Positions 9,285 to 62,800 of a stretch of DNA of 64,000 bases are shown piece after piece. Position 1 is the first letter of the stretch. Every line of letters begins with the position of its first letter. The translations under genes were made by a program, and so were the position numbers. This stretch comes from Protoeuglena noctilucae (lineage: Eukaryota): contig OY253675.1 in assembly GCA_958009085.1 (NCBI GenBank), positions 372,001 through 436,000 on the forward strand. Direction: 5' to 3'. The notes beneath the pieces were generated by a model. It worked only from the letters and a program-made list of their open reading frames with translations. It had not been told where the DNA came from and ran no database searches.

Positions 9285-12200
9285 TCATGCCTCTCCCCAG
9301 TCGTCGTCATCCAAGTCCAGCTGGTCCTGAGAATGGAGATAGAATAGGATCGCTTTGCTAATTCAGTACAGTTGCTAACTAAGTACAGTATAACTCACTT
9401 GTCACTACCTACACAGCATACATAGCACGAATGGCAACACTGATGCAATGACGCTACCATCCACCCACTCACGTCCGCATCAGCCCCCTCGTCCCCCAGA
9501 TCCACGTCACGCACCAAATCGTCAATGCCCTCCAAGTCATCCACCTGTGGGGTGATGAAAGAAAGCAACTATTTCAATGAGTATTAATAAGTGATGGCAG
9601 ACTCATCGCATCGCCCGCCACAGCCCGCAACGCACCTCCGCTCCCGCAACCCCCGCCCCCGCCCCCGCCGCCACCCCAGCCGCCCCCACCGCCCCCTCCG
9701 CCCCCGCCGTCTCCGTCACCGTCGCCAGCCCCGCCGTCGCTGCCGCCGCCCCCGCCGCTGCCCCCCCATCTCCCGTCTCAGTACCCCTGAACCCCCCTTC
9801 AGGCTGCATGGGCGTCCCACCATCCAACGCGCCCGCATTCGGCATGCGATTGACGATCGAGAAAGAGTCGGACGTTCGAGGTCCCATGGAAAGAGAACCG
9901 GAGGAGATGCCAGAAACACGGGCGTCAGTGGCTGGCATCTCGAGGGTGGGGGCCGGGCGGGGCTTGGCAGCGGGGGCGGGTGCGGGTGCGGATGCGTTGC
10001 CGTTGGAGAGGAGGGGGGCTGCGGGGGTGGGGTTGGGGATGAGGTTGTGGGTGAGGGTGGCAGTGGGGGTGGGGGTGGAGGTGGAGGTGAGGGTGGCAGT
10101 GGGGGTGTGGGGGTGAGGTGAGGGTGGCAGTGGGGGTGGCAGTGGGGTGGCAGCGAGGGTAAAGAGATTGTGAAGTGGACTTACCACCCCGAACACTCTA
10201 CCATTCAACTACCCCACTCCATCACACCCACTCACCCCCCACGGGCATGGATCTCATCAACGCCACCAGATCCACACAGTCACCCACCACCCCATCCCCG
10301 CTCACTGACCCCCCAGCTACCCCCCCACCACCCCACATCCCCACCACCCCTCACTCACCCCCCGCGGGCATGCTCCTCATCAGTGCGACCAGATCCGCCA
10401 CCTCCTCGTCCGCCACATCCATGTAGTCCCCCGCGTCCCTGCCCCCCATCTGCTGCCTCATGTTCTCCGCTTTCAAGAGGTCAGGGTAGTCGGGGAAAGC
10501 CTCGGGGTTGCGGTCGGGGTCCGCCAGGCCGTCGGCCACGTGCGTGAGGGACTGGGAGTGGGTGCTGGGGGGGTGGGGGGAGGGTGGTGGGTAAATGAGT
10601 GAGTCAGCGACTGGGAGTGGGTGCTGCGGGGGTGAAGGGGGGTGAGTGGAGGTGAGGGGCGGTGAGTGAGTGGGGCGGGTGGGTCAGAGACTGTGAGTGG
10701 GTGCTGTGGATGAAGAGAGAGAGGGTGGGGTGGCTGTGAGGGTGAGTGAGTGAATGGGGGTGAATGCGGGTGGGTGAGTGCGTGGGTGAGTGGGGGTAGC
10801 ATTAAGGGTGCTTCACACATCTACACCCACCCACTCCACCCCTCACCTCAGCTCCTCCCTCCACATCCCGACCGCCTCCGTTACACACACACACACAACA
10901 TCCACACCCCACCCCACCATCACCCCCCACATGTATGATGCATACATAAACAAACCCCCAGCCCCCTCACCTCAGCTCCTCCCTCCACATCCCGACCGCC
11001 TCGGCGATGCGCGAGGGCAGGTACGTCCTTGCAAAGAAGGCCGCCTCCGGGTACCTCTTGCACTTGACCAGCACCTCGTAGCACTTCTCGACGTTGTTCG
11101 TCAGGTAATGGCCCATGAACGCCAGGTTGTGCTGGCCCTGCTGCTCGGCGCGCGTGGCGAGCGAGGACATGCCCTCGCGGTTGCCCTGGGGTGGAAGGTG
11201 GGAGAGGTGTGCGTGAGAGATGTCAGTACAATAACATCGACAACATTGTTACAATCATAAAAATATTAGTCGAAATACCAAGTGATAATACATGGTAAGT
11301 GACAACTACTGAGAAATAAGTGACAAAGTATCAATAGAATCAACAACAATCCATAACACCCACACCCCTACCCCCTCGCCTGCGCGGTGTAGATGAGCAG
11401 GAGGGTGGCCAGGTCCCCCGCCCTGGTTGCCGCTTCGGCCGCCTCATCCACCGCCCCCGCCTTGATCGCCAGCTCCCCGATCTGCCGCCATTTGGTATCT
11501 GACTCGTCGCTCGCCGCCAGCTGCATGGCGTCCGACAGCCGCCCCAGCTGCACTGCCAACTCAAAGCGGTAATCGGGGTCCACCGCCACGTGGAAGGCTT
11601 TCTGGGGATGATATGGGAATTATATTCATAATTTTACTTATAGATAGTCATATTGTTTGTAATGGGGGGGGTAGTCGGGGTCCATCGCCACGTGGAAGGC
11701 CTTTGGGTGTAAGGGATGGCAGTGACAATGACAGTAATAATAAAAGTGATTATACTTCTTATAGTTGTTACCAGTCCCCACCCCACTTCCCACCCCCCCA
11801 TTCACCCCACACCCCATCCCCCCTCACCTCCGCCTGCCCCTTGGCTGCCATACACCCCACCCCACACCCCTCCCCTCACCCACCCCACCCCACTCCACCC
11901 CCCGTAACCCCTCACCTCCGCCTGCCCCCGGGCCGCCAGGAACCTCGCCACGCTGTCCAGCTGCGACTTGGGGATCTGGGGCAGCAGCGCCTGGGCCGCC
12001 TCCTCCTCCCCACGCAGCAGCAGCGTCTTGTACTCGATCACTGCGGACGATGGAATAGCAATGATAGTAAGATATGAACACCGATGTATTGATATGGAGC
12101 GTCAGTGCATTGTACGCAGTCACTGCGAGGATGGTGTGAGAACAACATGGATACTGCAGCCACCCAACCATTCCCTCTCTCCACCCCACCCACCCAACAC

Positions 12201-15058
12201 TCATCACCCCCACCCCCAACCACCCCCAACCCCTCACCCGCCAGCGCGAGGGAGTAGGTCACCACCGCGTAGTCCCGGTCGATCAAATAGAGCCGCTGCT
12301 GCTGGGCGTGGTATCCCAGCAGGTGCATGGGTTTCTCGAGATGCACGATCGTGGTCGTCTCCCCACCCACCGCGTAGTTGAGGCGCCAGGTGGCGTTCAG
12401 ATACACAAAGCACGCGCCGACCCACATGCCGGTGTGAACCCGCTCCTCCACCTCTTGCACCACCTCAAAGGCGTCGCCCAGGCCGTCCTCGTTGTTGATC
12501 TCCGCCCCGTCCGCGAGCGCCTGCTCCAGCGCGGCCGGGTTGTACTGCAGCACGAAAAAGGACGCGTCGCAAAGCACGACCAGGCTCTCCCCGCCCTCGC
12601 TCCACTGCAGGTCCCGCGCCTCCACGTCGATGCGGCGGACGAGCGTGGCGGTGTCCCAATCGTAAAAGCACACGAAGTCCGCCGCCTGCACCCCGATCAG
12701 CCGGCCGCCGAAGATCTTGACCACCGGGAAGGGGACCTTGAACGCGGTCGCCTCTTTGAAGTTCCGGAAGACGCGGATGGTCGATCCGGACTCCCGCACC
12801 GCGAAAAGGTTCGAGTCCTGGCCCCACGCGAAGTCCTGGGCCTGGCCGAAGTGGCGGTTGCGCCAGGCGACGGCGGTGTAGATGATGTACTCGCCATCGC
12901 CACACTGGGAGTGGAATAAGGGGTGGGGTTGGTTTGATATGTGAATTGAGGTGTAGACGATGTACTACCAAAACAGCACATATCACTTTTGCCTGTGTTC
13001 AACTTCCCCTTCCATCATCACTCACCACGGCGATGAACCTCCCGTTGGGCGAGTGCTTGAGGAAGGTGGGGAACACGTCGGCGGTCCCCATGTCCTTGAC
13101 CGCCAAAGGCAGCCGCTCCCCGTCCTGCACCTGGTACTCCCCCATGCTCTTGATGGATGCCGACTGCACCTCGGTGTGTTTGGCCCACACGATCTTGCCC
13201 GTGGTGGCGTCCATGCTGGCCATCGGGTCGTCGCTGCCCATCTTGACCACGACCGAGCCCTCGTCGCAGCCGACGGCGAAGCCGTTCAGGCCCTGGGGGT
13301 GGGGGAAAGGGAAGGGTATGTGAGTGAATGTGATTGAGTGCAAGTACAGCACAGCCGTTCAGGCCCTGGGAGAGGGGAGGGGGGTGGACGGGTATGTCAA
13401 TGAATGTGACTGCAAGTCATTGCGTGTAACGCAGCCCTTTGCGAAGCCATTCAGGCCATCGCATGTCATGGCATGCTCTCTCCACCCTCGCACTCTCACA
13501 TTCACCTTACAGGTCGATGGTACCCACCCATCTCTCTCAATAACCCTCACCTTCGTAGCCGCCAGCGCCCAGCACCGGTCCATGCCGTAGTTGAACGTCT
13601 GCTCGACCCGGTACGTGGTCGCGTGCCACATCCGCACGGAGCTGTCCTCCGATGCGGACAGGATGAGGGGCAGCTCGGGGTGGAAGGCGACCGCGGACAC
13701 GTTGCCCGTGTGGCCCTGCAGGGCCTGGATGCACGCCTTGGTCTGCGGGGCAGGGTCGAGGGGTGGGGTCGTTGAGGTGAGTGTATGAGATAAGAACCTG
13801 TGAGATCACTCCTGGAAAGTGGTTTCTAAACTGAATCTTGTTTTACACACATCAATTCCCACCTTCCACAACCACCCACCCCACTCCTCCCCATCTCTCT
13901 CGCCTGGTAGTCCCACACGCGCACGGTGGCGTCATCCGCGCCCGATATGAGGTACGGCCGGTCCCCCCCAGGGTAGTAGTCGATGCAGTTGACTCCCTTG
14001 GCGTGACCCTCGAGGGTGAAGTTGGGAATCGGCGATCCCAGCGACCATATCTTGACGGTGCAGTCCAGCGAGGCCGTGGCGAAGGTGTTGGGGTCCTTGG
14101 GGTTGAAGACCACCTGCATGACGTAGTGCGAGTGGCCCTCGAAGACCTGCGGGGAGTGAGAGGGTGCGGGGTTGGTTGGGGTCGAATGAATGACTGCCAC
14201 TTGCATGACGTAGAGCGAGTGACCCACTGGGGCGGGGCGGTGATGGTGCTAGTCCTTGCTCCAGTTCCCATTGCGTGCCTCTGCCATCGCTACTCACTGC
14301 CATCTCCACTAAAACGCACCTGCGTGCACTGCCAGTCCTTGTTCCAGTCCCACAGCTTGACCAGCATGTCGTCGGCACTGGTGAGGACGTACGACAGCGA
14401 AGGGTGCACGGCGACCGATCGGATGTAGTCCGTGTGAGCCTCGAAGTCCGCCACCTTCTCCATCGTGTTGTAGTTGTAGACACGAAGGTGCATGTCGTCC
14501 GAGCCCGCCACCACCCACTGCTTGCGAACCACAAACTTGGCGCTACGCACTGTGGCGAGGGACATACGAGAGACGGGAGCTGATCAATGCGACTTGCAAT
14601 CCAGAAGGGTCAAGCGGTGTTGTCAACAATTTGTGTTGCCCACACACAGAGCAAGGTGCTTCATACTAGGGGCGCTCGCAACGCTTACGCAGACACAGGT
14701 GAAGCGCAAGGAAACAAATCGGTCCGCGCCATCTATTTGACCAGTCGTTCGCGCTCAGCTCACCGGGGAGCTCCGAGACTTCGAAGGACTTGACCACGGC
14801 GTTGTTTTGGTAGTCCCAAATGACCACGGACCCATTGTACAGGTTGGTCAGCAGCCAGGGCTCCGTCGGGTGGATCTCCACGCCCTTGACCCGCTCCGAA
14901 CGTTGCATAAACACGCGCTTGGCGTCCAGGTGGAGCGGCTGCGGGAGGGGACGCGCTGGCTTGTCGGAAAGCGGGCAAGGGGCGCCACGATGAGCGCAGC
15001 GCTGTCTCGCGAGCGCCGGGATGGATCCCAAGCCACAGAAAGTGCGATGCGCGAACAT
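9285..15058 (-). CDS. COPB2: Coatomer subunit beta' (COPI, WD40), ~14 exons
   Basis: Exons [126 protein letters not shown] are diagnostic of beta'-COP/Sec27. The acidic tail ends DDDDWGEA* at 9285. Confidence 0.97.
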
Positions 15059-15692
15059 GGGATTCTCTAGCTGCGACGTGCGCAACCAGAGACGCCTGCT
15101 CGCGGCGCAAACGACCGGGGGATTCGTTAAGAGGCAGGGAGAACACTGCACGAGCAGATCGCGCGGAACTCAGAGGGGATGGGGCCCCGCAGTGCCACTG
15201 CCCCGAATTCCGACCCGTACACGACCGGGTGGAGCAGTGGAACGGCGCACCCCACCCCTCGGGCGCCGAGAGGGATGCCCCGAGCTCGCGCCCAGCTTCG
15301 GGCACCATCCCCGGCGCTGGGGATCCCGCGGGGTCCCGCTACACGCAGCAACGCGGACGGCATGCTGCATGTTCTCAGCTCCTCGAGCAGCTCGCCCAGA
15401 AACCCGCGGCGAGGGTCGCAGGACAACCATGCGGAAAGGTCGGGTCCCGCGGGCCGGTGAGGGGCCCAGAACCGATAGAACCATGCACATTTGTGCGCAC
15501 CGCACGGCCATCAGGGCCATCCGACTCACCATGGCGCCCCACCCTCGATGCGCGCCGGGGGGGTCCCCGCGTGATACGATGCGGTCTGCAGCGAATGCCG
15601 ACTGCTCGGGAATCGAGAACTCGCCGGTGTCCGCGCGCGCGGGGCCCCGCACGAGCCCGCGAATCGCCACGTCAGGCGCCAGAGCAGGCGGG

Positions 15693-15848
15693 GGCATCAT
15701 CGGGAAAACCCGGCGATTTGACGTCACTCGGATCAGGAGGATCGCGGGAATCACTGGATTCATCCCAGTGATCCCCGGGAATCGCCGGGATCATCCCCGT
15801 GATCCCGGCGATCCCCGCCACTGCCGCAGTGATCCCAGCGATCCCGGG
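15693..15848. repeat. Left (sub)terminal repeat block with ~10-bp-periodic GATC/GAATC motifs
   Basis: ggcatcatcgggaaaacccggcgatttgacgtcactcggatca...catcccagtgatccccgggaatcgccgggatcatccccgtgatcccggcgatcccc; the reverse complement aligns with 21154-21277. Confidence 0.75.
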
Positions 15849-16389
15849 CCGCGGCCCTGACGCGCGTGCGCGCCCCCGCGTTTGCTCAGGGGGCTCGAGA
15901 GGAGGCGGAGAGACCGCACATTTGCTAGTTGGTGCTAATGACTGCCTCGGAGGCCCCTCTCGCGTCCTAAAGCTTGCTCCAGCATGCAGACGGGGGCCGT
16001 CGACGCATCCGGGGTCCGCTTCCCCTGCGCCGCCGCTGTTCAACGTGAGATGTCCATATCTATGCGATGAGCGGGAGCTCGCGGGCTCGCCGGGCCCCCG
16101 GGGGCGCCGGGGAGGTCCCCGTGCTCGACCAGGCCTACCGCCGCCGCGGCCGCGATCGGGCACGCAGCGCTTGGCCTATGGATTGAGGTGACCTAAATCT
16201 CGCTAGCTGCGGCGCCTTTGCCGGCTACGCCGCACGGAGGTGGCTGCTGCATGGGAGGTGAGCCGTCCCCGCCGTCATGGCGCTGCGGATGGGGGCGCGG
16301 GGCTGGCTTCGGAGAATTATCTCGATACAGATGACATCGCCGGCGTCGGGGACCTGGCACCGCGAGCATCGGGGAGCTCCTGGGGTCAC

Positions 16390-19300: not shown

Positions 19301-19892
19301 TCAGCGATGCCATGAACTGCGCCCCTGCTTCAAGTTGGCTCAGGTACTCATCGTCACTGTCCCTGCTCCTGGCCCGCCATGCCTCCAGGTCCTCCGGCAG
19401 CTTCAGCGGTTCGTACTCCCCGGGCGCAGGAAGGTAGGAGACTCCAGGAGCGTCCTCTTGGGGCGCATCATGCGCTCCGGCGCTCTCGGGCGGTTCACCC
19501 CTCTCCGAGTCAATGTCCACGTCCATGTCCACGTCCGTGTCGGCGTAGTGGAGCCACGCGAGTCCTACATCTTCGCTCTCGCCATCACTGCCCGCAGCAA
19601 CGTCCGCCGTCCCGTCTTCCTCCCGCAGTTCTTGGTCTGGTCCCGCGCTGGCGCTGTCGCGTGCCAGCCCGTCCGAGCCTCGCAGAGACGGAGAGACATA
19701 GTGTTCGTGTGGGGCGGCGGGGCGGGGTGCTTCCTGGCGGCTCTCCTCGCCATATCTCCAGCCCCACAGCGCAGGGCATCTTTGCTGATGCCGGGCGAGC
19801 TTGGCCGGGGTATCGAATTGCGTTCCACACGCGTCGCATTCGAGCATGGTGAGCTGCAGCGCAGGTTGCGATGCAGGGTTCAAGGCGGGCAT
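16390..19892 (-). CDS. Plavaka-type (EnSpm/CACTA-related DDE) transposase with N-terminal zinc finger; ~7 exons; apparent 1-nt frameshift near 18432
   Basis: N-terminal CDACGTQFDTPAKLARHQQRC zinc finger; VPVAYSIDG (first D); GGVWMTLPDVGRVIVFP/VLAAQLND..CPLC; DLYQGQAPDPMHTVELG (DxxH motif); KCHALSHFPAVVARNG....NDAERMHKPIANARTNGK. The order and spacing match my recollection of Plavaka/EnSpm-like transposase motifs. Confidence 0.75.
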
Positions 19893-21153: not shown

Positions 21154-21277
21154 CAGTGGGGTCACTGGGATGATCCCTCTGATACCCCGGGATCAGCGGG
21201 ATGATCCCCACGATTCCTGGGTATCACGGGGATGATCCGACTGACGCCAGACTCGCGGTTTTCCCGATGACGATGCC
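21154..21277. repeat. Right (sub)terminal repeat block: ~31-bp tandem unit GGGATGATCCC..GAT.CC.GGG.ATCA, inverted relative to the left block
   Basis: gggatgatcc occurs at ~21167, ~21198 and ~21229, followed by gactgacgccagactcgcggttttcccgatgacgatgcc, which mirrors 15693-15735. Confidence 0.75.
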
Positions 21278-30600: not shown

Positions 30601-33600
30601 CACCGCGTCACTGCTCAGGATCGCGTCCAGCACCTCCCGGCCCTGCTGCCCGGCCTTCTCGGTCTCGTGGATGCGCCAGAGGGACCAGGTCGCGGAGTCC
30701 TGGGATGGCAGGCGAGGGGTCGATATGATATGAGTTGCATGGTAATAGGGAGTCAGCAGCCACAAGTAGATTGTGACTACAAATCGTGATTCCTAACAAC
30801 CTGTCTAGTTGAGGATAGCTCTACCCTCACCTTGCCCCACATCTACGCACAGCTGCTCTACACTAACCACAACCGCAGACCCGAACCCTCACCTTGACTG
30901 GGTCCTCCCCCTTGGGCCTCCCGCTCTCCTCCTCCAGCTCGCTCTGCACCCTCCGCGCCGTGTGCACCAGCGACGCCCGCCGCCGCCCCGCCAATGCCGC
31001 CGCTGCCAGTCGCTCCCCCGCCCTCGCCTCGCGCATGCGCTCCGCCACCTCCGCCCACACCCCGGGCAGCTCCAACGCGCTCAGCTCGGGAATGCGGTTC
31101 TTGCCCGTCGGCTCCGCTTCCACCGGATCGGTCAACTGGCGTGTCAGGTTACCCAAGCAGCCCGCCTCGACCACCAGCGGCAGACACCTAGGCACGCCCT
31201 CCGCGATGTCCGCCAGCGTCCCGCACGCCGCGATGCGCGCGCTCGCGTTGCCCGAAGCGAGGACCTTGTTGATGATCGTCACGTACTGCTTGTCGGCCAC
31301 CAACGCGCGTGTGGCCTCGCCACATGTCAGCCGCCACAGCGCCCACATTGCGGCTGCTTGGGCCCGGCGGGACCCGTAGACGAGCAGATTGACTAAGAGA
31401 GGGACGGCGCCGGCCTTGGCCACGGCCTTGCGATTGGGGCCGGTCTTGGAAATGTTGACTGCGGCGGTGGGGGGTTGTGTGTGTGGGGGTGTTGGTAGGG
31501 TGGTGCGAGGTGCGGTGGGAGCATGCACGGGGTAGCACTAGGAGCGGTGTGTGTGAAGTCAACAGCCAAAACCAACCAAGTTGCACAATCATCACAAGCA
31601 ACTACCAGCTCACCGAGTCCCCACGCGGCGTCCTTCTTCCCCCCATCCGTGCCCTGGCACAGCAGGTCCACCAATCCCCGAACCGCATCCAGCACCTCGC
31701 GCTCCCCATCGCTCTCGCTCGCATCGGGCTCCGCCTGCCGGGGCGCCGCGGGCTTTAGCAGCGCCGCCGCGCTCTGGGTCACCACCTTCACGAGCCGCTC
31801 CATCGCCCCCGTTTCATACAGGGTCCGCTTGGCCAGCGGGTGACCCGTGAGCGCCCACAGCGCGATCGCTGACGCGTCTCGCACCTCCTGCACCTTGCTC
31901 CCCAGCAAGTTGACCAGGATCGGCAGCGCGCCGGACTTGGCGACGGCCGCTTGCACTTGGAGCTCCCCAGCAGCCAGCTGCGTGATGCAACGGGCGGCCG
32001 CGGTGGTCGCGTCCACCCGACCCTCCGCCTCCTGCAATTGCCGCACCAGCCCCTCCAGGCCCCCCGCCGCCACCACCCGCGCTTTGGATTCCGACGTCTG
32101 GCAGAGCACCGTGACGGCCCGGGAAGCCTGCACTTTGCCCTCTAACTTGGCGTCACGCAACACGGCCGCCAACGGTTCCAACACCCCCGCGTCGATCATC
32201 AGCCCCCGCGCGCCATCGCCGCTGACCGCGATGTTGTGGACCGCCAAGCACGCGGCCTCCCGGCAGCCCTCGTCCGCGCTGCGGCATGCGTCCATGAGCG
32301 GCCCCGCCGCCCCATGCACCTCCGTGATGACACGCACGTTCGCCGGCAGCTGCGCGAGCACCGCCAGCGCCCGCGCGGCCCACTCCCGCGCGGAGTTGGC
32401 CTCGTGCCGCAGCAAGTCGACCAAAGGGGGAATGCACCCGATAGCGGCCGCGTGAGACTGCACGTCTTTGTAAGCGTCCGCCACGGACTCGAGTGCGCGA
32501 GCCGCTGCCTCGCGGCACTTCCAGGGGACCTTGGAGTAGTCCGGGCCCGCAGCGGCGGCTCCCTTGCCCTTGCCGCCGGCCGCTGGGGGGGGTGGGGGCG
32601 GCTCGGCCTCGTCGGCTTTGGTCGGGTCCACCACCTGCGGTGTGAGGGAGAGAGGGAGGAGAGATTTGAATGTAAGGCAACATAAGAGAGAAGAGGGATT
32701 TAAATGAGCTGACTCGTCAATAATACATCGACAGCATGCTTGCCTGTGACTTGCAATCACCGACACACCAACACATGGATACCCCCCCTGCCACCCACTC
32801 ACCTCCCCGCCCAACAAAATTACCAAGCTCTCCACGCCCCCTGCCTCCGCGATGTCTCTCTGAATGGGCCAGTGACCCTTGGCCAGATTCGCCAGCGCCA
32901 ACGCCGCAGCTGTGCGAGACTCGTGGTTCCCCGTCTTCACCAACGCGACTAATGGACCGATGGCCCCGATCACGGAAATGAGTATCTGCGTGGCTTTGGA
33001 GTTGGTGGCCAGGTAGCCCAGGGCGCCGGCAGCCGCGCGGCGGCCTTCGTCGTTGGTGAAGGGGCTGGGGGGGGTTGGGGAGGGAGTGGGGGGAGTGAGT
33101 GTGGTAGTAAGTGAGTGAATGAGTGAGGGAGGGAGTGTGGGAGTGAGCGAGTGGAGGGTCCACCTCTGCAGCACCTTCGTCATAGCAATAACAGCTCATC
33201 CACCACCCTCACCCCACTCACCTCTGCAGCATGGTGATGATAGCATTGGTAGCTCATTGACCCCACCCCCAGTCAACTCACCTCTGCAGCATGGTGACCA
33301 TGGGCTCGATCGCCCCCGCATTGATGATGCGCCTTACGCTCTCGGTCACCCCAGCCAAGTTGACCAGCGCATTGGCAGCGATCTCCTTGCCCCGCTCCGA
33401 TCCCTGGATCAGAATGTCCACCAGCGGCTCGATCCCGTCCGCTTTGGCTGCTAATGCCATGTTGTGGTGATTGTCAGAAACCAAGTCGCGAATCGCGGAC
33501 CCCGCCACCTCTTGCGCATGCAGCGCGATGGCCTGCTCCACCTCCCGGCCCAGCTGAAGTAGACGAACGATGCTGCGGGGACAGATGGGGTCAGTATGTT

Positions 33601-38158: not shown

Positions 38159-38238
38159 ATTCGCTTAGCTCCTAGCTAGCAGCGCAGCAGCAGGTCTGCG
38201 ACAGAGTTGAACTCCTCACAGAATAAGACAAGCAAATG

Positions 38239-42800: not shown

Positions 42801-45800
42801 TCTCACCATGGCATGCACCATCTCTGCAGGAACCTGCAAAAACACTTCAAAAGGTGGCTTAAGGAGACCCACCAGAAGGAGGACAAGGTCATGGTGCTGA
42901 AGGGCATTGCGGATCCCGAGCAGCAAGAGGAGATACGGGTGCGTGGAGAGGGCATAGCTGTATAAATGGCATGCCCAGCAACTGTGATGCAGGTGTGCGT
43001 GTTGGGTACGTGCGTTGGAACGCTGGTGGCTGAACACGGCAAGCAATGGCCAACGATGCACTTATGCTCGTACTTGCAGAAGACGTACAAGGGCCGCACT
43101 CTCTACAACCGTGTCGTGGTGGGAGGGCCTCGGGCCAGGCAGTACAAAGCGGGCGACTGCGTGCAGGTGCACACGAAGCCGATCGTGGTGGGTGTCGTGA
43201 AGGGGTTTCTGGCGGATAAGATCCACGAAGGCGACCTTGACACCGGCAGGTGAGGATTGTGCTTTGTTATTTGCAGGATTTGTGGTTGACGGCTGATTTT
43301 CGTTGTGCTCGCGTGAACGCGATAAAGATATCGCCTACAGCTGGAGAATTACTTATTCTTATAGAGAATGAGCATATACCACCTGTCTTCTCCCCGCACC
43401 CAGCGGCTTTGTGCTCCTGAACCCGGTGCCGACGCCCCTTCACGCCAAAGAACTCAAGGACTTCCCTATTACGCGCATCGTGAAGATCGTGACAGATGAG
43501 GAGAGGCGGGCGTACGAAGAGGCCCAGCTGAAGAAGCTGCCGTCGCAGGTGACGAGGATACAATGCGGAATACGATGAGCGTGCTACTGCATGCATATAA
43601 GTATATTTCTCGAGTATTCATGCGATATTTTGATCGGGCGGGCGGATGGATTGCGCGCACGGGAGGGTTGGCTGTCGTCTGCGACCTTTTGCGTAGGTGC
43701 GCTTCAATCACAATCACCGCATTCTTTATTTCAACTAAATCCGACCTGCGCTGCATTCGTGTCCGCAGATGGACGTGCACTTCTGGTACCGCGGCCCGGA
43801 CAAAGAGGAGGCGGTCGACAAGCGAAAGAAGGTCCCGACCAACGGGGTCACCGTCAAGGCCGGGAGCAAGCTGCCGGGGATGCTCGTGGCGGTGACGGAC
43901 GGCCACGGCAAGGCCGCGAAACGCAAGAGCGAGCGGGGGCTGACCTGGGCCCTTCAGGTCAAGCAGGTGGGATTCCGAGTGATCAACAAGCGCAGCGGGG
44001 TCGGCGCTGACGGGGGGAGGGCGAGGGCCACCCGCACCCAGCCGCAACGTGCTGCGGCGCCGCGTGCCGAGGGCGAGGGCGAGGATCGTGCTGAGGGTGC
44101 GAGGGAGGAGGCATGGGAGCTGGTCAACAACCACCCCTACAAGGAGAACCTGTACTACTTTGAGCCCAAACAGGCGAGGAGTCGGGTTATTTGTGGCTCT
44201 GACTATGACTCTCTCACTAGTACTACAATTATGACGATGACTTGTTTGTCATGACTCGAACCCCTCCTCGTGCTTTCCAGATGAAGGAGACGGGCGTGTT
44301 CATCATCGAGCACGTCGTCGAGCTGGGCATTGAGGGCGTCGCTCCCATCAAGCACAGCACGACCGTGCGCGTCACGGGGGCAAACCCCACCGCGGTCCGG
44401 CTGGGTGGTCCGGGCGTCGAGCATTTGGCCAAGGGGTCGCCGATGCTTCTCGAGACGATGCCGGACATCGTGGTCGAATTTATGGACGAGTTCGACAACC
44501 CCACGGCGCTGCCTGACACGTTCGACGCGGCCTCTCTGGCGCTGCGACTGGCGGCGCAGGGGCCCGAGGGACCCGCGGAGATCCTGCGTCTGGAGTTCGA
44601 GTCCTGCGAGGCGGACGTGGAAAAAGGCACGGTGACGCTCCGGGCGCCCCGGGTGGCGGGGGACGAGGCGAGGGCGGAGGCGGTGCGGTCGGTCTTCCAC
44701 GCCAGCAAGGGGAAAGGCACACGGGCCCAGGTCACGCTCAGGTGACGGGGATGGGGTTGTAGATAGGGCTGGTAGTAGGTGATGTTATGTTACTGCTTGG
44801 GTGAGGTGAGGTGATGGGTGAGTAGGGGGCGGCGAGCACAAGGGCATGAGGCCGGTGTCCGATTCGAACTTACCCTCACCCTCTCCTAGTTTCCCATCCG
44901 CAGCGTCTCTTATCCCAGCATGAAGGAAGACCAGCTGGGATTCGATCTCCTGTCCGGGCCCCCCGAGGCCCTCCGACTCGAGGAGTCCCACGGCGCCAGA
45001 AACGCGGACCCCTCCTCCGCCAGAAACGCGGACGCCTCTGATGCCGGAAACGGGGCCGCGGGCAGCGGGGCGGGTGCCGGGGCGGGCGAGGGCGGGCGAC
45101 AGCGTGGGCCGGCGGGGGCGGTGAAGGCATCGCCAGCGGCGGTGGGGGCGGGGACCTCCAAAGCCACAGCCGCAGCCACGGTCACGCCCACTGCCAAGGG
45201 CTCAGGTGCTGCAGGCAAGGGGTCAGGTGCAGCGAAGGGGTCAAGTGCGGCCAAGGCGGCAGGTGCGGCAGGTGCGGGGTGGGCTGGTGGTGTGACCGAC
45301 TGTCCTTTCACAAGGCTCACACAGCTGAGGTTGCAAACCTGTCTCTCACTTTGTTATTGGCTTATCTGTTGCCACTATCAATGCAGGATTGGCAGGTGGA
45401 GGTGCAGGTGGAGGGCCTGCATCAGAGGGGGATGCGTTTGCGTTGGAGGTGGACTCGGGCGCGGCGTCTCTCATGCTGTCGTTCCTGGCGCTGGACCGGT
45501 ACGGCAACAGGGCTACCTTGCGCAGGTGGGGGGGTGGTGTGGGGATGGGTGGGGTTGTGGCTGGGTGGGTGGAGAGGTTTGCGGGTGCTGGTGTCTGTGC
45601 GGGTGCTTGCACGGGTGTCGACGACCGCCCCTGCCTCACACACGCCCTCACTCACTCACACCAACACACCCACACCCTCACCGTCACTGCTACCCTCACA
45701 TGTTCAACCCCCACCCACCTCCCTCACCCTCTCATCCCTCGCAGCGACCTGGATGCCCGCCTGTCCCTCACCTCCCCGCTCCTCGCTCTCACTCCCAACC

Positions 45801-48800
45801 TCACACACATCTCACACAGTCCCAACACACACCCATCTCCCTCACCCCTCGCAGCGACCTGGACGCCTGCCTGTGCCTCTCCTCCCCGCTCCTGGCCCCC
45901 GGCCCCGGCGCCCCTGACGGCGCCCCGTTACTCCCCGTCGAGTTTTCTGACAGCGCCGTCGCCACCGTCAGGGACCTCTCCTTCGCCCCCGTGCCAGAGG
46001 GCGCCAGTGTGGCCGTGTCAGACAACGCCGTGTCGGTCTCAGCGCTCGTGGAGGCGTGGATCGACTTCGAGGGGCCGGTGCCAGAAACGTTTGCGCACGT
46101 GTACCCGGGTACGACCCCGCATCGGGGGGCGAAGAGGGCGCGGGCGAGCGGGGCGGCGGAGGGTGCGGGTGGGAGGGAGACAACGAGGGTCGGGCTGCTG
46201 CGGGGGAGGCTGGTGAGGGGTGGGAGGGGGTGTGGGTGTGTTGGGGGAAATGTGTGAGGTTGAGGGCTGTGTTGATGATGTGAGGGTGGGGCGTGTGAGG
46301 TGCAGCTGTTGTGGTAGTGCTTGTTTATTGCTCCCTCTCCCAGCGCTCTCATCTCCATCACCCCACATCCGGCCCTCTCTCTCTCTTCCCACCCCACGCA
46401 GACCGTCACCCCCAGCACCGACCCCGCCACCATGACAGTACATTACCAGGGCCAGCCCCTCCCCTGCACGCCGAAGGCCATTGAGGAGGGGGCGGACCCC
46501 ATCCCCGTGTTCGAAATGCCGGGAGGTGAGGATTTGATTTAACAATTGAATATATGTTGTAATTGTCATGTATGTTACATCGCTATGCATCGTTGTGTTT
46601 CGCCTGAACCGCTCCCACTGACCCGGGCACCCACTCCCATAAACTCACTCCACCCACTGCCACCCCCACCATCACCCCCACTACCACCCCCACTGCCACC
46701 CTTATGACCACCCTTACTACCACCCCCAACCCCACCCCCAGCCTTCCCCGTGGCCACCACCCTGGACCGCGTCACGCTCCACATCGTCGACGAGGCAGGG
46801 AGAATCGTTCCCAAACCTCTGTCGGGTGATATCAAGGTATCCTGGGACCCAAGAAATGCGATACCGGCAGAGCCCACCATGCCCCTCAGCTGGAAACTGC
46901 CAGAGGAGATATGTGCTCTGGCCCCGGTGTTCACGATCGATTTCTACCAGAAGGTCGGAAAGAGGCGGACGAGCAGGCACATACGGGTCGGGGTGCAGGT
47001 GTGTGTGGGGGGGGTTGGGGTGTGTGTACGTGTGTGCGGGGCTGTGGGTGCTGTGGTGTTGGGGTGCGGGTGCGGGGGTGTGTGTGCTGTTCCATATGTG
47101 CTGTAATATGTAATTCTGATATTGCATAATCAATACTACATCTCGTGATATTGTATTCGCTTTATTCTATTCTCCCCTCTCAGGTTCGCCTGTCCCCCGG
47201 CCCCCCCCACCAGTACGCGTTATCGTTCGAAAACCCCGAGAGCGCCGACCTGCAGAACGGGCAAGTGCGAAACGGGGAGGTGGCGAGGATCGAAGTGCAG
47301 ATCTTCGACCAGTACTACAACCCCACGCCGCCCAGGGACGACCTGCCGGAGAGGGAGGTGAGGGGGGCGCGATCGTGGGTGGAGCTTTGGTTTTGAATTT
47401 ATGAATATGATTGATGTTCGCTGTAGCCTGCCATCGTGTTAATGTACTTATTTGTTTATTATTTTATATTTATTTTAGTTTATATTATATGTTTATTCTG
47501 ACCTGTTTTATTATTACACTTGCAATAATAATGTTATTATTATTATTATTTCCAGACGAAAACTCAATACCCTCGCACCCCCCCCGCAGCTGGTGGCGCT
47601 CCTCCTGGAGTCATCGATCGACGACCCCCTCCCCTGCCCCTACTCCATCCACGTGCTGAGCGAGGCGTGGTGCAAGAAGAGCAAGGACGCGGCAGAGGAG
47701 GGGGGGAATCAGGTGAGGGCACTGTGATTGTTATAAATGGCGTGGGAATGTGTGTGGTAGCCGTGACGTTGGCTGTTGTTATGATTCCAAATATTGTAAT
47801 TATTATTGTTTGTTATTACTCGTATATTATATTATGTAAGTATCGCCCCCAGGCCGACCAGGCGGTGGAGGAGGACGTGGTGATGTACCGGGTCAAGTTC
47901 TCGGGGCCACCGGGGAAGTTCAAGTGAGGCAATGCGAGTTGCATGGTTATCTTATTAGTATCGTTATTATCCATGCTCGGTCAGTGCCTGGTGTTGCCTT
48001 TGGTTCCCCCATTTGGATGCGCAACATTGCCACGCACCCGTCTACCCCAGCCACGCCCCAATAGCAAATGCAATACGTAATATGCAAAACATCATCATTC
48101 AACCACCCCCTCACCCATCACCCCAGGGTGGGCGTCCGCGACCGTTCCGGCCCGAACGGCGCCTCGCGTTTTCTGACGGACGACGTGCAAGTGGAGATGC
48201 TGCCGGGCGCGCCCTGCCGGCTCGAGTTCTCCGGCCCGCCGCAGCTGCGCAGGCCGGTGCGGTGCCGGCTGGAGGGTCTGTCCGTGCGGGTGGTGGATGA
48301 GGGGGGGTCGCTTTGCAGTCACGTGGGTGGTGCGGGGTGGGAGGGGCGCAGCGTGGAGGTCTTGCTAAGCAATGCGGCTTTGGAGGAGAGCGGCGGGGGT
48401 CTCGCGGCGAAGGTGGGGTGCGCGGGGGGCAACCGGGTGGCCGTGGTGGATGGGGTGGCGGTGCTTCCGCCTGTGACGGTGTCGGCGGATCGGCCGGGCA
48501 CGTACCTGCTAGATGCGGAGCTCCGGAGCCGGGACCTGCCGAATGTGGAGCGTGCTACGCTGCGGCTGGTGCTGGAGCCGCGCAACGCGTGCACGGGGCT
48601 GCGGGTCGATCCGGGCAGCGTGGGGCGGGGGGTGGAGGCGGGGCAGGCGGCGGTGGTGGCGGTGGCGGTGCAGACGGAGGACGGGAGGCCGCTGGACTCG
48701 GAGGCAGGTGATTGTTAGTGTTATTATTGCTTTATTATGATAATAATAATAATTGTAGTAATTGTAATACTGGTGATAATTGTAGTAATTGTAATATGGG

Positions 48801-51800
48801 TAAACGTAGCAGCGGGGAGATGCGGGCGGAGGACGGAAGGCGAAGCAGGTGATTGCAATGCATGAAATTCATGATATTCTGTTTTATTATTTTTAATATT
48901 TTATTCATATTATTGTATTTGTTAGTTATCAACTGGATAATAACCGAGCGCGCACATCCCCCGCCCCCGCAGCCTCCGCCGGCCTCCGTCTGGCCATCAC
49001 GCCCCCCTCCGGTCGCAAAGCGGACGTCTTCCACGTGTTGCCGGAGGCGATCGAGGCGGGCGGCATAAGGGAGGCGAGGTTCTGTGTGCAAGGGCTCACC
49101 AAGGCGGGCAAGTACGGACTGATCGCCGAATTCAAAGAGACGAGGGCGGACCTGGCCAGAAAGAAGGAGGCGACGATACGGTGAGATAAGCATAGGAATG
49201 GTAATTGTTAATTACCATTATGGTAGTATTTGTGGCTATGATTGTGATGACTTGCCGCTACTCTCACGCCGTCGCCCAGTGCTTTGCAGTTCACAACTCA
49301 ATGTACCAATTACATTCGCCCCATTCCCTTACAACCGCAGCTCCTCCGCCGCCGCCCTCCTCGTCTCCCCCGGCCCCGCGGACACCGTCGCCCTCCTCTC
49401 CGGCGCCACCCCCCACCGCGCATGCACCAACCGCGGCGGCGGCGGCGCCCGGGTCATCGCGGAGGCGCCGATCTTCGAGGCCCGCGACGCCCACGGCAAC
49501 GCACTGCCGGGTGGCGCAGCTGCGGGGCAGATGCGGGTGCGGGTGGGGTGGGCGCGGGGGCCGTCGCAGGCACCCCCGGGCGCATTGCTGCCCCGGATTA
49601 CCGTGAACAACGAGGAGCTGCCCGATCCGAACCGAAACGCCACGGATGGTCCCGTGGACTATCCGGAGATAGAGGCTGACGAGGTGGGGCGGTTCGTGCT
49701 CGGACCCGTGATGGTGGTGGAGGGGACCGGGCAGATGGGCGAACGTGCTGTGGACGGTGCCAGTCAGCCCTTTGGGATGGAGTTCGTGGTGGATTTTGAA
49801 TGGCGCCCCCCGGGGCAGGACTACTTCAAATCGGCGTATACGGTGGAGGTGGCGGTGTGTGATGACGAGCACCGGGCACGGGAGGTGCAGGTGAGGGGGT
49901 GGGGTGGGGTGATGGTTGGTATTGTGTTTGTGTTTGTATTGATGATTGTACAGGTGAGGGGTTACTGGGTGATGGTGGGTGAGCAGTGGGGTGGTCGTAT
50001 CGTTTAGTGGAGTGGTGACGGTACTTGCGAAGGGTGGGTACTTGCGCAGTGGCCTATACCATAGTCGACCATTATCACACAAAACAGCAAACCATTCTCA
50101 ATTTATCATCCTCACACTTACCCCCACACTCTCACCCCACCCAGCGCACGGACCGTGAGCTGGCGTCCCTCACGACCAAGCGCGACCGGCTGCTTCAAGA
50201 GGCCAAGGAAATGGAGGAGAAGCACGAGACGGCAAAGAGGGCGCTGGAGAGATTCAATCGGGAGATCGCCCGGCTGGCGAGGGACGTGGAGGCGGGGGCG
50301 CCGGCGACGGCGGAGGAGTGCGCGGAGATGGCGGGGAGGATCAAGGTGAGTGATTGGTGATGGGATGAGATGAGATGGTGGGAGATGGTGTAGGGGTGGC
50401 CAGGAGGGTCAAGGTGAGGGGGTAAGATGGCGGGAGGAGATGTGGAGATGGGATGATGCGGGTTGCTGGTTTGTGGCATAGGGTCTATTATGGGGTACCC
50501 CACATCCCCACCCTCATACGCAGGCGGAGCTGGCGAGCTCCCGCCGCCCGTACCGCCCCCCCCGCATCGAGGGCTCGCGCTGGGCGCCCGTGCGTCGCAC
50601 GATCGAATCTCTCGAGGCCCACCCCCCAATCGACGGCGTGATGGGCTTCATGGTTCGCCTTTTCGCCATTGATGATCCCCAGTTGGCTCGGGTACTGTCG
50701 GCACATATCGGACCCACCAAGCTGGCTACGCTGGTGGTTAACGATTTCGATGCGAGGCGAAGGGCGGATGCGGTGTTGAGGGGCCCCAAGGGGACGTATA
50801 TGCCAGACCGGTTCGTCATTCAGGGCGCGTTGCGGGGGAAGGAAGCTCCGGGGGAGCTGCAGGAAAGGTGAATGGGGGGGGGAATGCGAACAGTCACGTT
50901 GTTGTTAGTTTACTTTTAGGAGCTTTGTCATTGCAGGACAGGTGAGGTGCTGCCCTCACCGCCACCCTCACTGCCACCCTTGCTACCACCCACACCCCCA
51001 CCCCCACAGCGCCCCCCCCCACGTGCGCCAATTGCACGAGGACGCCTCCCTAGGCACCGACCCCATTCTGGCATACGAGTTGCCCCACCAGCTCGCGATG
51101 CGCAACGCCGGTCTGACGGAGGACGCGGCTCGCCAGAAATGCGAGCAGGCCAACGCCGCTTTCATCGACCCAGACGCGTGGCCGGAGGGGCTGCTCGGAT
51201 ATGTTGCGAATCTGATCCGGCCCCTGCGTCGCGAGCTGCGCGCAAAGGTGCTGTGGCCCATCTTCGGAAAGTGCATGCTGTTTGACCGACTGGAGAACGC
51301 CGAGAAGTACCGGTGAGGATTTGATGGTTTTTGTTATGTTTGGTTATAATTATTATAGTATTTATTACAATAATACTGTATTAGTCATGTTGTTTGACCG
51401 ACTGGAGAACGCCGAGAAGTACCTGTGAGGATGAATAATTATCAACAAGTATTGACTACAATTACTAGTTTTTAATTATTCAATGGAAATTGAAAGTCCA
51501 TAAATATTATATAATTATCCTTTCTCCCCACCCCCCCAGCGGCCTGTGCGTCGCGCTGGGCGTGGGTACTGGCGAGTTGCTCTGCATGACGGGCGACCAC
51601 ATGACGGCGTCCGGCATCATCCGCGGCTCGTCGGGTGGCGTGGACGTGAGCAGGGACCCGGATGTGATGCTCGGATCGACGGCTGCGGGGGAGGGGGCAG
51701 AGGACATGAGGAAGGGGAGGTGAGGGGCGTAATGGGGTTTAGAATTTACAATTGTTATAGTTACTACTGTAGCAGTGTATAACAATAGATGAGGAGGGGG

Positions 51801-52598
51801 AGGTGAGGGGTCGGATGTGGTGGTGTAAGTACTGTAAACACAGTACTTACAATTGTTACGATTGCGATCATAACAATCGTACTATACGATATTAATTATT
51901 TATATATTTTACAATTAGCAATATCTTTGTCGAATATGCTTCCATTCCCGTCACGCAGGGCGCTGGAGGCGCTGGAGAGTCTGCAGGAGGCCTTGGAGGA
52001 AATGGACCGGGCGAGGATGTATGTAATTATTATATTATAATAACATTATTATAATAATAGATACATTTGTTAATATCATTTGATCTGAATTTGGATTGGT
52101 GCGTGCGAGCACCTCGGCGCGAATGCCCTGACTATACTTAGCAGTATACTTGATACTAGTATCACAGTGGCATATGTGATTATCAATTATCATAGATAAT
52201 GTTATCACGTTATCCACTATCCATATTCCCCACAGCTCAAGAAGGAGGAGGAGGAGGCGCGCGAGGCCGTGGAGGGCCGCATGGATGAGACCATGGCTGA
52301 GGTGAATGAATTGGAGACGAGAATCGAATCGTTGAAAGCAAAACTGGGGGTGTTGCAGGGGAGGGCGCCGGCGGGGGCGGAGGGGGCGGGGGAGGGGGGT
52401 GCGATGGTGAATGGGGTGGGCGGGGCAGGTGATAGGGCGGGGGGCGGTGGGGTGGGGATGGGGGTGGGCGGGCCTTTGCCGATGGCTAAGGCGAAGAAGA
52501 GGAAGGGTGGAAGTAAGGGGGATAAGGGGGATAGGGATAGGCGGGGTGATGGGGAGAGGGAGAGGGGGGAGGGGAGCAAGCGATCGAGGCGGGCGTGA
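39890..52598 (+). CDS. SMCHD1: SMCHD1/GMI1-like protein: UBL-like N-terminus, GHKL ATPase plus transducer, long beta-rich (Ig-like) linker, coiled coil-SMC hinge-coiled coil, basic tail; >25 exons; start exon tentative
   Basis: PHPNTVIMAGDLEYFESNGAHPLAYALAELIDNA, VEDNGCGM..LNQWA, SSDLSFFGVGSKNAVFYLG, HLAHLYHYYLHG, EGVLWYFPYDHDRETLP, IFELFWQGRLIP, RIRGALF..FGVTRNKLTF follow vertebrate SMCHD1 motifs in order. The hinge region is GVMGFMVRLFAIDDPQLARVLSAHIG, GLLGYVANLI, IFGKCMLFDRLENAEKYR, LLCMTGDHMTASG. Confidence 0.9.
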
Positions 52599-59800: not shown

Positions 59801-62800
59801 AGCTGCAGGCGGAGGCCAGGGGTGGCGGCGGGGGCGATGGTAGTGCTGTCAGCGTAGCGGCGGCGGGGGGGGTGCGTGGGGATGGGGTGGGAAAGGGGTG
59901 GAGTGGGGTGGGCGAGGTGACCGATGCGAGCCAGGTCCGATACATGGACATGCCGGGCTACCGGGGTGGTTACTCGAATACCAAAGTGGCCATGGCGGCA
60001 GCATCGGGGTCGGCATTGGGTCACGACATGTCCCTCGCACGCGCGCTGGAGGTGTTGGGCCTGAAGGAGCGTGGGGAGGTGGGCTTGCGTGCCGCCGCCA
60101 GTGTCCACGTGGCGGCTGCGGGGCCCTCGGTGTCGCCGTGGCTGTCGCGCAGTGCGCTGGGGGATCTGAGTGTATCTGGGGTGCAAGAGGGACGGGGAAC
60201 GGGGTCGGTTACTGGCAGGGCCAGGCGCAGCGCGGTGGTCACGGCAACGACCATCCGCGGCACTGCGGGCGATGCGCATGGGGGCGTCCCACCAAGCGAC
60301 GGTGATCCGAGCGACAGTGGTAGTGACGGCGGGCAGCGCGGGGGCGGCGCCGGCGGCCGGGTTAGGGAGCGCAGGGGCGGTGTGGGTGGTGGGTCGACAT
60401 CTAGGGGTGGCGATCGCCCCAACCACGGCCCCGCTGGGACCGGGCACCTGGACGCCTCTGCTGCAACAACGTCATCCACCTCCTCCTCATCTCTGGCGAT
60501 CTCCACCCAGCCGTCCCTGTCCGAGCGGCTTCGTGCTGTGCGCGTCGTGCTGGCGTCGAGACGTGCTCTGGCGCAACGTGCTGTGGCGGGGTGCTACGCC
60601 CGGCTGCGGCAGGTGACCTGAAAAGGGAGGTAGTGGCTCAGTGCTCGCATGGCCGCGACGGCTGGGTAGGGTGTGCTTCGAGATGCGGTGACAACAACAC
60701 GTCGTTGTTGCTCTCACACGCCAATGACATAGTTGTATGACTCTGATCCAACCATATCATTCGTTCTCTAATTATCGCTCTCATATCACACATACATCTC
60801 AGGTGCGCGCGGAGTTGGCGTACGCCGAGTACGTTTGCACGTCGAGGAAGGCGCCGGAGATGCGGCCCTCGCGGCTGGAGAGGGGGAAGCCAAAGACCAC
60901 GTGGTGAGGGTCGGGAAAGCTGTTAAATATGATGACATGGGTGGGAGTTTGAGACGGCATAGTGGGGCGGCCGGCGTGCAGCCAACCGAGTGACCCATTC
61001 CACTCCCCGCATCCCCTCACACCTCCCTCTCTCGTTCTTTACCCTTACACTTCCCTCACACAGTCCCCTCCCTCGCACCTCCCCCCCCAGGCTGTCCGGC
61101 GCCGTGAGCGTCGCCCAGTCCAAGCACGCCCCCACGCGGCCTCAGGAGCCGGACCGCCTGCAGTCGCACCCACTGCGGCCGGAGATGCACGCGTGGGAGG
61201 GGTCGCAGGTGAGTGGGGGTGGGTGTTCGTGAGAGTGGCAGTGACAGTGCTGCGCTAGAGTGCTGGGCATGCATGAAGTGGTTGTGAGGGTGTTAGTGCT
61301 GAGTCTTTACGTCATAATCATGACGCATGGATGCTGCAACCGTCTCGCATTCCCCCGCATCGCAGTTTAAGCTCGCCCTTCTGTGCGAGTTGTGCACCAA
61401 GCTGCAGCTGAAGCTGGGCTTCATGGCGATGGCGTGCCTGGGGGTGGAGCGGAGGGACAAGGAGAACCTGGTGGACCAAGTGCACTGGTGAGGGTAACAT
61501 CACATTATCAGGTTGGTCATAGTAATATCAAAAGCTCATTTGGTTGCGACCCACACAACCACCCGCACCCACACCCGCAGGCGCACCCGCCGCTCCCTCC
61601 TCCGCGCCGGCCTGGCCGCCCTGCTATGCAACGCGGAGGAGGGGAGGGCCAAGCGGGCAGCGGCGGACGCTCACTTGGCGATAAGGGGAAGGGAGAGGGT
61701 GCAGGAGGCGTGGGGGCGGTGGCGGGGGTGGGCGAGGGAGGAAGGCGCGCTGACCAGGTGACGGTCAGTTTGTCATTAATTGATATACTGATTGGTAGTA
61801 CTAGTTATGCTAGTTATGAATTGGCTGGTACTGGTTCACATGGCTACCGTGACTCGCTGTGATGGGCGAGGGAGGAAGGCGCGCTGACCGGGTGAGGGGT
61901 GGGAATGGGTGCACTGATTGGTAATGATAGTACTTTATAGTAATGGATTGACAGGTACTGATTGCCATGGCTGCAATCACTGTTCACAGACACCCACACC
62001 CACACCGCGACCCCTACCCACACGCACCCACCCCCACTCACCCCCCGCAGTTCCTACCTCCGTTGCCGCGCCATCCACGACCGCCTGCTCCGCACCTCCG
62101 CCCTCGCCCACTGGGCCGCCCTGGCCACCTCCCAGAGACTGGCGCGGCTGAGTCAGGCCGCCGGGATCTCGTTTCACGCCAAGTCCTGCCAGCTGCGGTG
62201 CTTTGCGGCCTGGAAGCATCTTCTGCTAAAGCGCAAGATGCTCGACGATCGGATGCGCGCGCCTGCGACTGTGACCATCGCAAACGCCACTATCCCCACC
62301 ACCGCCACTGCCGGAGTTACACGGGGTGTGGCGCGTGGCACCACCACCACCACCACCACCGCTGTCATTGCACGCGGCAGGGCAGGGACTGTGGTTGATA
62401 AGGGTGCGACGATCGCGGATCCCAGTGGGGGTCCGCTGCCCCGGCTGGGCGACGCCATTGGACGGGGGCTGGGGCGCGTGGCGGGGCGGTTCGAGGCGGC
62501 GAGGGTGCAGGTGAGGGGTCACAGCTGTGGTGGTGAGCGTGCGGGGGTGCAGGTGAGGGGTCACAGCTGTGGTGGTGAGCGTGCGGGGGTGCAGGTGAGG
62601 GGTTGCTGCCGTGGCGGCTGGGAGCATACTCGCATTTTACGTGGGTCGCTACATGTGTACACATCTGCCCACATCGTAGCTCCACTCATCAACCCCACCC
62701 CATGTTAACATCCACCCCCCTCTACCACAACTCAGATCCATCAGTGCAAGTCCCTGCTGCGCCGCCTGGCCCCTCACCTGCGCTTCACCGCAAGCGGTGA

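Follow-up and report, generated by a model that had tools for sequence, protein, structure and literature searches.

Exon-edge copies inside introns of Protoeuglena noctilucae, probable remains of short tandem duplications across splice junctions

A 64,000-nt stretch of the genome of the alga Protoeuglena noctilucae (GenBank assembly GCA_958009085.1, contig OY253675.1, positions 372,001 to 436,000 of the forward strand; here called the window) contains genes whose introns hold near-identical copies of their own adjacent exon edges, usually with the splice site. These copies, which we call echoes, are a real feature of the DNA. They are probably (we put the probability at about 0.65) the remains of short head-to-tail duplications that straddled a splice junction and were tolerated since the outer splice site stays in use.

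We picture the process as follows. Units of 42-134 nt would be duplicated head-to-tail, in places growing to mini-arrays of three copies, and a duplicated unit would straddle an existing splice junction by chance. The pre-mRNA would then carry two tandem donors or acceptors, of which the spliceosome would keep the outermost; the inner copy and the spacer would join the intron, which would grow by one unit and leave the mRNA unchanged. Because the mRNA would stay unchanged, a junction duplication should be nearly neutral; the same duplication inside an exon would be removed by selection. The exon-derived half of the copy would stay recognizable, as one partner is constrained by coding and the sequence is complex, and the slippage-prone intronic rest (G-runs, C-runs, (GT)n, AT-rich tracts) would be quickly reworked by insertions and deletions (indels). 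Replication slippage or unequal exchange at short homologies could produce the duplications.

Echoes and the splice sites in use

The first-pass annotation of the window reported at least 12 pairs of exon edge and intronic copy, and our re-count reproduced 11 of the 12 at their coordinates, with identities of 38/45, 40/40, 32 of 37-38, 27/30, 23/26, 26/29, 22/22, 44/48, 45/47, 21/22 and 32/33. The remaining pair, 13280ff and 13430ff in COPB2, matches at only 9/26 positions in the register first proposed, but a third copy is real (13266-13292 and 13431-13457, 22/27). One further COPB2 family, at 10540, had been overlooked. Echoes accompany ~13 of ~186 predicted junctions (~7%, or ~1 in 14), on both the donor and the acceptor side. 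A blastn self-comparison of the window gave 34 local direct pairs. Pairs of at least 35 bits lying 20-300 nt apart numbered 20 in the window and 0 in each of 12 shuffles (made within 60-nt blocks). Four families have three copies (10540, 13266, 33203 and 62499), as minisatellite growth predicts.

The cases are listed below. X5 and X6 are metagenome DNA runs, and X9 and X12 are RNA runs with COPB2 joints. The core is the high-identity part of a pair, and z scores the likeness of the spacer between the copies to the flank behind the second copy.

10229..10396, minus strand, COPB2, donor-side echo: exon edge and GTGAGTG at 10352-10396 (exon end 10359); copy at 10229-10273, 123 nt downstream in the sense direction; 38/45; both on an X5 contig covering 10120-10570, with 0 differences.
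10540..10706, minus strand, COPB2, acceptor-side echoes in three copies: acceptor and first 25 exon nt at 10540-10575 (exon start 10564); intronic copies at 10599-10634 (32/36) and 10679-10706 (24/28); a 59-nt unit repeated almost entirely.
10839..11002, minus strand, COPB2, donor-side echo: 32 exon nt and GTGAGGGG at 10963-11002; exact copy at 10839-10878, 40/40; 84-nt spacer without simple homology to the flank (z=1.5); RNA joint at 10971.
11568..11707, minus strand, COPB2, acceptor-side echo: site at 11568-11606 (exon start 11601); copy at 11670-11707, with its AG lost; core 29/31; AT-rich 63-nt spacer; ~20 nt of intron homology beside the acceptor; both copies on an X5 contig covering 10973-11899, with 0 differences.
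11803..11938, minus strand, COPB2, donor-side echo: site at 11891-11938 (exon end 11916); copy at 11803-11850; 40/48; 88-nt unit with ~75 nt repeated, the G-rich likeness continuing into the intron.
13266..13457, minus strand, COPB2, acceptor-side tandem triplication: site at 13266-13304 (exon start 13292, from gene model and tblastn); unit of ~73-85 nt; copies at 13346-13377 and 13431-13457; z=8.3; on an X5 contig covering 11879-15723, with 0 differences.
14110..14225, minus strand, COPB2, acceptor-side echo: 87-nt unit; exon start 14146; copy at 14197-14225; core 26/29; the copy takes in ~70 nt of exon, less a deletion of 6-7 nt (z=3.8 for the additional exon homology); 0 differences on an X5 contig.
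33158..33297, minus strand, ARM-repeat gene, donor-side tandem: 60-nt unit in ~3 copies; site at 33263-33297; copy at 33203-33237; core 22/22; spacer ~71% alike (z=4.6), with one indel of 3 nt; a third copy, degenerate, near 33158-33179.
45731..45893, plus strand, long gene, acceptor-like duplication: 45731-45783 and 45841-45893, 48/53; 110-nt unit; at least 36 nt of intron homology with an 8-nt indel; frame open through both copies; the AG in use is ambiguous.
51274..51432, plus strand, donor-side echo: 38 exon nt and GTGAGGAT at 51274-51320; copy at 51386-51432, 45/47; AT-rich 65-nt spacer, ~55% like the flank (z=3.0); stop codon directly behind the true donor.
51706..51810, plus strand, donor-side echo: 14 exon nt and GTGAGGGG at 51706-51727; copy at 51789-51810, 21/22; z=3.2.
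61729..62020, plus strand, donor-side whole-unit tandem duplication: 134-nt unit; edge at 61729-61761; copy at 61863-61895; core 32/33; spacer 61762-61862 homologous to the flank of the copy (~80%, with indels and one replaced block; z=14).
62499..62603, plus strand, 42-nt tandem repeat in 2.5 copies: 98% matches; GCAG|GTGAGGGG in each unit; frame open throughout; may be an array on the donor side or else a coding repeat in frame, judging from the sequence.

Left out of the count were the pair 4369/4415 (17/18), a copy of exon-internal sequence without a splice site that is too short to weigh, and short-period arrays at predicted junctions 7893, 41227, 42301, 45193 and 57859, which are G-rich, of low complexity and next to exon borders that come from the gene model only.

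All copies are direct and lie within the adjoining intron, with donor echoes downstream and acceptor echoes upstream of their source. No other layout would leave the mRNA unchanged. Eleven of the junctions were placed by RNA evidence, by homology or by the logic of stop codons, and two are ambiguous (45731/45841 and 62499). Four junctions rest on RNA joints, one on the end of a contig piece (10359), and the others on homology, the gene model or in-frame stops. An in-frame stop directly follows the true donor at 33203, 51274, 51706 and 61729, and the distance between copies is divisible by three in 5 of 13 cases, which is no bias. The lack of bias and the stops together indicate that the echoes are non-coding.

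RNA contigs from two runs show which sites are joined in COPB2. They give exons at 10359-10564, 10971-11184/5, 11379/80-11601, 11916-12040 and 12238-12904, with joints 10564->10971 and 11601->11916 (X9 and X12) and further joints 12040->12238 and 12904->13026. The first of these introns (10565-10970, 406 nt) contains one donor echo and two acceptor echoes, and the 314-nt intron contains one of each. In both introns the outermost sites are spliced and five echoes in all are passed over. The first-pass annotation had wondered whether echo sites are used; in these contigs they are skipped, although RNA contigs would be blind to rare use, and 15 of 42 joints were listed. Among the 15 joints listed from metagenome and RNA contigs, none is an indel of an echo copy. 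The suggestion that echoes lengthen introns and leave intact-looking decoy sites was borne out: GTGAG or GTGAC is kept in 8/8 donor echoes, and the AG is kept in 5/7 acceptor echoes.

Short repeats can mis-assemble, so false second copies made by assembly or polishing had to be considered. We give this explanation next to no weight. The X5 and X6 contigs come from a different study than the organism-labelled runs and were built with a different assembler. They carry 10229/10352, 11568/11670, 13266/13346/13431 and 14110/14197 with 0 differences, and the pair 11803/11891 is present on two overlapping metagenome contigs. Moreover, contigs of both runs break where an exact 40-nt repeat predicts: they begin exactly at 10973 (11003 minus 30), matching the end of that repeat at 11002, presumably because a 31-mer graph was used. 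This comparison covers the COPB2 pairs, for which the five pairs in independent contigs rule out an artefact; six of the 13 cases, beyond 29000, lie outside it. Metagenome DNA contigs also contain a 39-nt extra tandem copy at 25511-25549, in a coding-repeat gene (23995-25701), and a 59-nt deletion in a CCG-rich array at 9669-9729. Tandem units therefore vary in the natural population.

Whole units, cores and spacers

In most cases the duplicated segment is longer than the well-kept core. In 6 of 12 cases tested, the spacer and the flank behind the second copy are significantly alike (z 3.0-14, with 0-2 of 200 shuffles reaching the score): z is 14 for 61729, 8.3 for 13280, 4.6 for 33203, 3.8 for 14110 (further exon), 3.2 for 51706 and 3.0 for 51274. 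Homology is visible by alignment in 10540, 11803 and 45731, and 62499 is an exact tandem. Similarity thus continues into the spacer in ~10 of 13 cases, as expected of a decayed tandem duplication with a unit of 42-134 nt. The first-pass annotation had noted that similarity stops a few nt into the intron, which a plain tandem duplication would not predict. The observation holds for the high-identity core but mostly not for the whole unit, and the argument built on it fails, given whole-unit homology in six cases by z and in four more by alignment or exact tandem.

That annotation had proposed instead a locally templated process, either Pol-theta-like or RNA-templated. Mature mRNA cannot have been the template, because intronic bases of the splice signals are present in the echoes. 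Templated insertion by Pol-theta should leave inverted as well as direct copies; at the same threshold, we found 2 local inverted repeats, both of low complexity, against 34 direct ones, and we rejected it. Duplicated units of 42-134 nt are also longer than typical Pol-theta inserts. A related possibility, near the original idea, is that a break or stalled fork in the G- or C-rich arm of an intron re-primes at a microhomology resembling the splice consensus at the true junction, copies 20-50 nt of exon edge and rejoins, by a loop-out template switch or a Pol-theta-type insertion. Such junction-biased copying would account for cores of 21-53 nt that end a few bases into the intron, for exon parts that are short and narrowly distributed, and for 10839 and 11568, which have young cores and spacers without clear homology. 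Priming sites abound, with GGTGAG present 24 times in intron 5' halves against 6.4 expected. However, spacer homology in ~10 of 13 cases means that whole units were duplicated, snap-back synthesis should yield some complex inverted copies and there are none, and the arrays of distant relatives (see below) are plain tandems with exon parts of up to 76 nt. We consider templated copying of this kind unlikely.

Alternatively, filler DNA could have been inserted at staggered breaks, with fill-in of the overhangs duplicating 20-50 nt much like a long target-site duplication. If the duplicate included a splice site, the insert would be spliced out with the old intron and would survive. The cases 10839, 11568 and 51274 do read as core, unrelated (partly AT-rich) spacer and core, and filler insertion would explain why only near-junction insertions survive in exons. 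Against this, most spacers do have homology to the flanking intron, and intron-internal core-spacer-core pairs should be the commonest kind, yet there are ~5. Blastn of nine spacers against the window found no source or second copy, only low-complexity matches. Filler insertion therefore seems improbable to us.

Finally, echoes might be maintained by selection or gene conversion, for example as extra landing sites for U1 or U2AF that aid splicing of short GC-rich introns. The better conservation of cores than of spacers, the donor motif kept in every donor echo, and one echo common to three contigs of relatives (L039, L030 and L037) would fit such a role. But a protein or snRNP (small nuclear ribonucleoprotein) needs only the splice motif to land and would have no use for 15-40 nt of exon; decay is seen in older echoes (10229 stands at 84%, and third copies at 78-86% with the AG lost); and the three contigs may be close strains. 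We find maintenance very unlikely.

We placed the observed unit sizes uniformly on the crude gene map and kept those that were wholly intronic or spanned one junction. Junction-spanning units were expected at a ratio of 0.86 to intron-internal ones (a share of 0.46). Uniform placement thus makes junction-spanning units almost as common as intron-internal ones, which favours ordinary duplication. We observed 13 junction cases and ~5 intron-internal ones (5068, 5412, 48749, 58194 and an array at 10023-10160). One partner of a junction pair is constrained, and for this reason such pairs can be assumed to stay detectable longer; if they do so for twice as long, the excess at junctions has p=0.29. 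The first-pass annotation had inferred a focus at splice junctions, and conceded that the idea would fall if junction-spanning repeats were no more frequent than equally long local duplications elsewhere in introns. The excess is modest and the latter outcome is nearly what we see, with no clear junction excess.

Several results nevertheless weigh against chance duplication across junctions as a full account. The excess of 13 over ~5 has p=0.02 before any correction for detectability. In 12 of 13 cases the exon contributes less than half of the unit (mean 0.33, expected 0.53; p=0.0004), and uniform breakpoints do not predict such short exon parts; all but one of the 13 exon-side breakpoints lie 12-40 nt from the junction. 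For 10839, 11568 and 10229, the spacer shows no significant likeness to the flank (z 1.5, 1.0 and 0.8). In 10839 the 84-nt spacer contains one more donor-like motif, a degenerate third one, and then ~44 nt resembling the sequence behind the echo, which suggests that this case would need nested duplication events. Cores are far better kept than spacers (45/47 against ~55%, 22/22 against ~71%), and this contrast is larger than constraint on one copy should cause, namely a two-fold difference in rate. When events are counted instead of bases, the contrast is, by our own estimates, non-significant for 61729 and 33203 and persists for 51274 and 10839. Part of it probably reflects one-copy constraint, ascertainment, length changes of G-runs in spacers, (GT)n and block replacements. 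All placement expectations, moreover, rest on a crude gene map (4 of 10 RNA-supported introns exact), and all counts come from 64 kb.

The COPB2 loci of distantly related algae repeat the pattern, which speaks for tandem duplication. Across 43 such loci, found in a scan of metagenome contigs, local direct repeats occur at 6.3 per 10 kb, against 3.1 in the window, so local-repeat density as such is not special. The relatives' repeats are concentrated in five related contigs of ~50% GC. Many of the local repeats there are junction echoes, and intron-internal minisatellites are present too. Examples are as follows.

L039, 3019-3105 and 3142-3228: echo of an acceptor and ~76 nt of exon.
L039, 3595-3744: array of three 55-nt units, common to L030 and L037.
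L030, 8846-9172: array of three ~112-nt units, alike in the intron part too.
L030, 6001-6866: array with at least 6 copies of an acceptor and one COPB2 exon start.

The last unit of the relatives' tandem arrays spans the acceptor. Arrays lie within 25 nt of an exon border found by tblastn in 26 of 35 instances against 15.8 expected, a comparison in which loci share arrays and are non-independent; in two representative loci, 8 of 12 arrays lie near a border against ~5.4 expected. We did not accept the relatives as proof of a junction focus, for that same sharing of arrays. Exon start and acceptor are repeated six or more times at L030 6001-6866 and L039 5948-6588, with two types of unit, one of ~75 nt and one of ~113-122 nt that has a spacer of 35-38 nt.

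Gene map and other features of the window

Introns are dense in the window, and its GC content is high (56-69% per 2 kb). A crude gene model predicted 116 exons with a median length of 182 nt and 93 introns with a median of 177 nt, and serves as a rough map only: it reproduced exactly 4 of 10 RNA-supported introns, and a fifth fell within the 2-nt ambiguity of the cut. Up to 0.94 of the window's words occur in marine metagenome DNA runs, and 0.40-0.46 in metatranscriptomes. No allele of the same species was found, and the scan of metagenome contigs for close relatives gave at best 52-68% protein identity. In a protein search the top match of COPB2 had 69% identity, with green algae at 53-58%. 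Gene labels of the first-pass annotation fared unevenly. Arm repeats were found by Pfam in the gene at 29-36 kb, as its label of ARM gene requires, and five exon pieces of the genes called SMCHD1-like (40137-52580) and Sfi1-like (59662-63248) had no Pfam match, so that neither label was confirmed.

The predicted introns fall mainly into 78 GT-AG and 13 GC-AG introns among the 93. GC-AG introns are thus common, and one of them, 11186-11379, has RNA-contig support, with a 1-nt alignment ambiguity and an open frame. Base composition is polar along 87 predicted introns, with G at 41% in the first fifth and C at 39% in the last fifth. The GGTGAG count given above belongs to the 5' halves; the branch-site-like motif CTCAC is found 49 times in 3' halves against 17.6 expected, and many predicted introns have an AT-rich core. 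A simple gene model using coding and splice-site signals called the echo at 10236-10304 an exon, and split the long plus-strand gene at 51316/51387. Echoes are likely a source of annotation errors.

A further element lies at 15715-21243. It is ~5.4 kb long, with a metagenome word depth of ~375 (X5) and ~228 (X6) against ~15 and ~9 in its flanks. Its inverted terminal repeats of 58-60 nt (15747-15808 and 21158-21244) show 81% complementarity, and each arm is in turn built as a 31-nt tandem. The element is transcribed and spliced (joints 17457->17746 and 18892->19096), and two pieces of its open reading frames had no Pfam match. From these sequence features it looks like a multicopy DNA-transposon-like element.

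Relation to known systems and significance

Duplications of this kind are already known, although the first-pass annotation knew of no described system to match them. Intron 7 of human F7 contains a 37-bp minisatellite whose first unit lies across the exon 7/intron 7 boundary; its functional-looking pseudo-donors go unused, and splicing takes the most upstream site (Borensztajn et al. 2006, PMC1557585). As in F7, the echoes are tandem copies of exon edge and donor in the intron, arranged as direct repeats with a boundary-spanning unit, and the outer sites are the ones used in the alga's RNA contigs. F7 is a single locus with one regular array, whereas the alga has ~13 of ~186 junctions affected, on donor and acceptor sides, mostly with 2-3 copies, units of 42-134 nt and decayed spacers.

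In human segmental duplications, internal minisatellites with units of ~30 bp lengthen exons and introns, and those placed on exon-intron boundaries give rise to introns (De Grassi and Ciccarelli 2009, PMC2812944). There too, boundary duplication on the scale of a minisatellite alters intron length and offers new splice sites. However, the human transcripts are often changed (alternative forms, 66% of intron modifications) and the alga's mRNA is apparently unchanged, with events in conserved single-copy genes.

Hellsten et al. (2011) reportedly described introns gained when an exonic AGGT segment is duplicated in tandem. Tandem duplication of such a segment is an accepted route of intron gain (Yenerall and Zhou 2012, PMC3443670; Lehmann et al. 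2010, PMC2891723). The echoes share with this route, as those reports present it, a short tandem genomic duplication rescued by splicing. In the AGGT model a new intron arises within an exon, flanked by the two copies of a proto-splice site, whereas in the alga an existing junction is duplicated and an old intron lengthened. We rejected AGGT-type gain, as the introns extend from their true donors to far-off acceptors and enclose the echoes (for example, 10565-10970). Introners, or transposon-derived introns, are reported from intron-rich marine algae, where the inserted DNA is spliced out (Gozashti et al. 2022, PMC9860276). Our case resembles theirs in being an intron-rich marine alga with added DNA that is removed by splicing. 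We rejected this origin as well, since the spacers have no second copy in the window and there are no local (terminal) inverted repeats. Only the frequency is new, on donor and acceptor sides and in an alga; our literature searches on this theme turned up no genome-wide study with such a frequency. None of this establishes a novel process of repair or of splicing-linked mutation.

With ~1 junction in 14 affected, this alga, with its short introns and high GC content, provides a dense natural set of duplicated donors and acceptors. Intron lengthening, the birth rate of decoy sites and the spliceosome's choice of outer sites become countable in one genome. As a practical matter, echoes mislead gene finders and break short-read contigs.

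A broader reading, which we hold only tentatively and think doubtful, is that in this algal lineage introns lengthen chiefly through serial duplication of their edges, with breakpoints tied to the junction. If so, the G-rich 5' arms of the introns, studded with GGTGAG, and the C-rich 3' arms, studded with CTCAC, would be fossil echo arrays. Splice-site duplication would then be a general and measurable route to intron expansion, to the birth of decoy sites and possibly to intron sliding.

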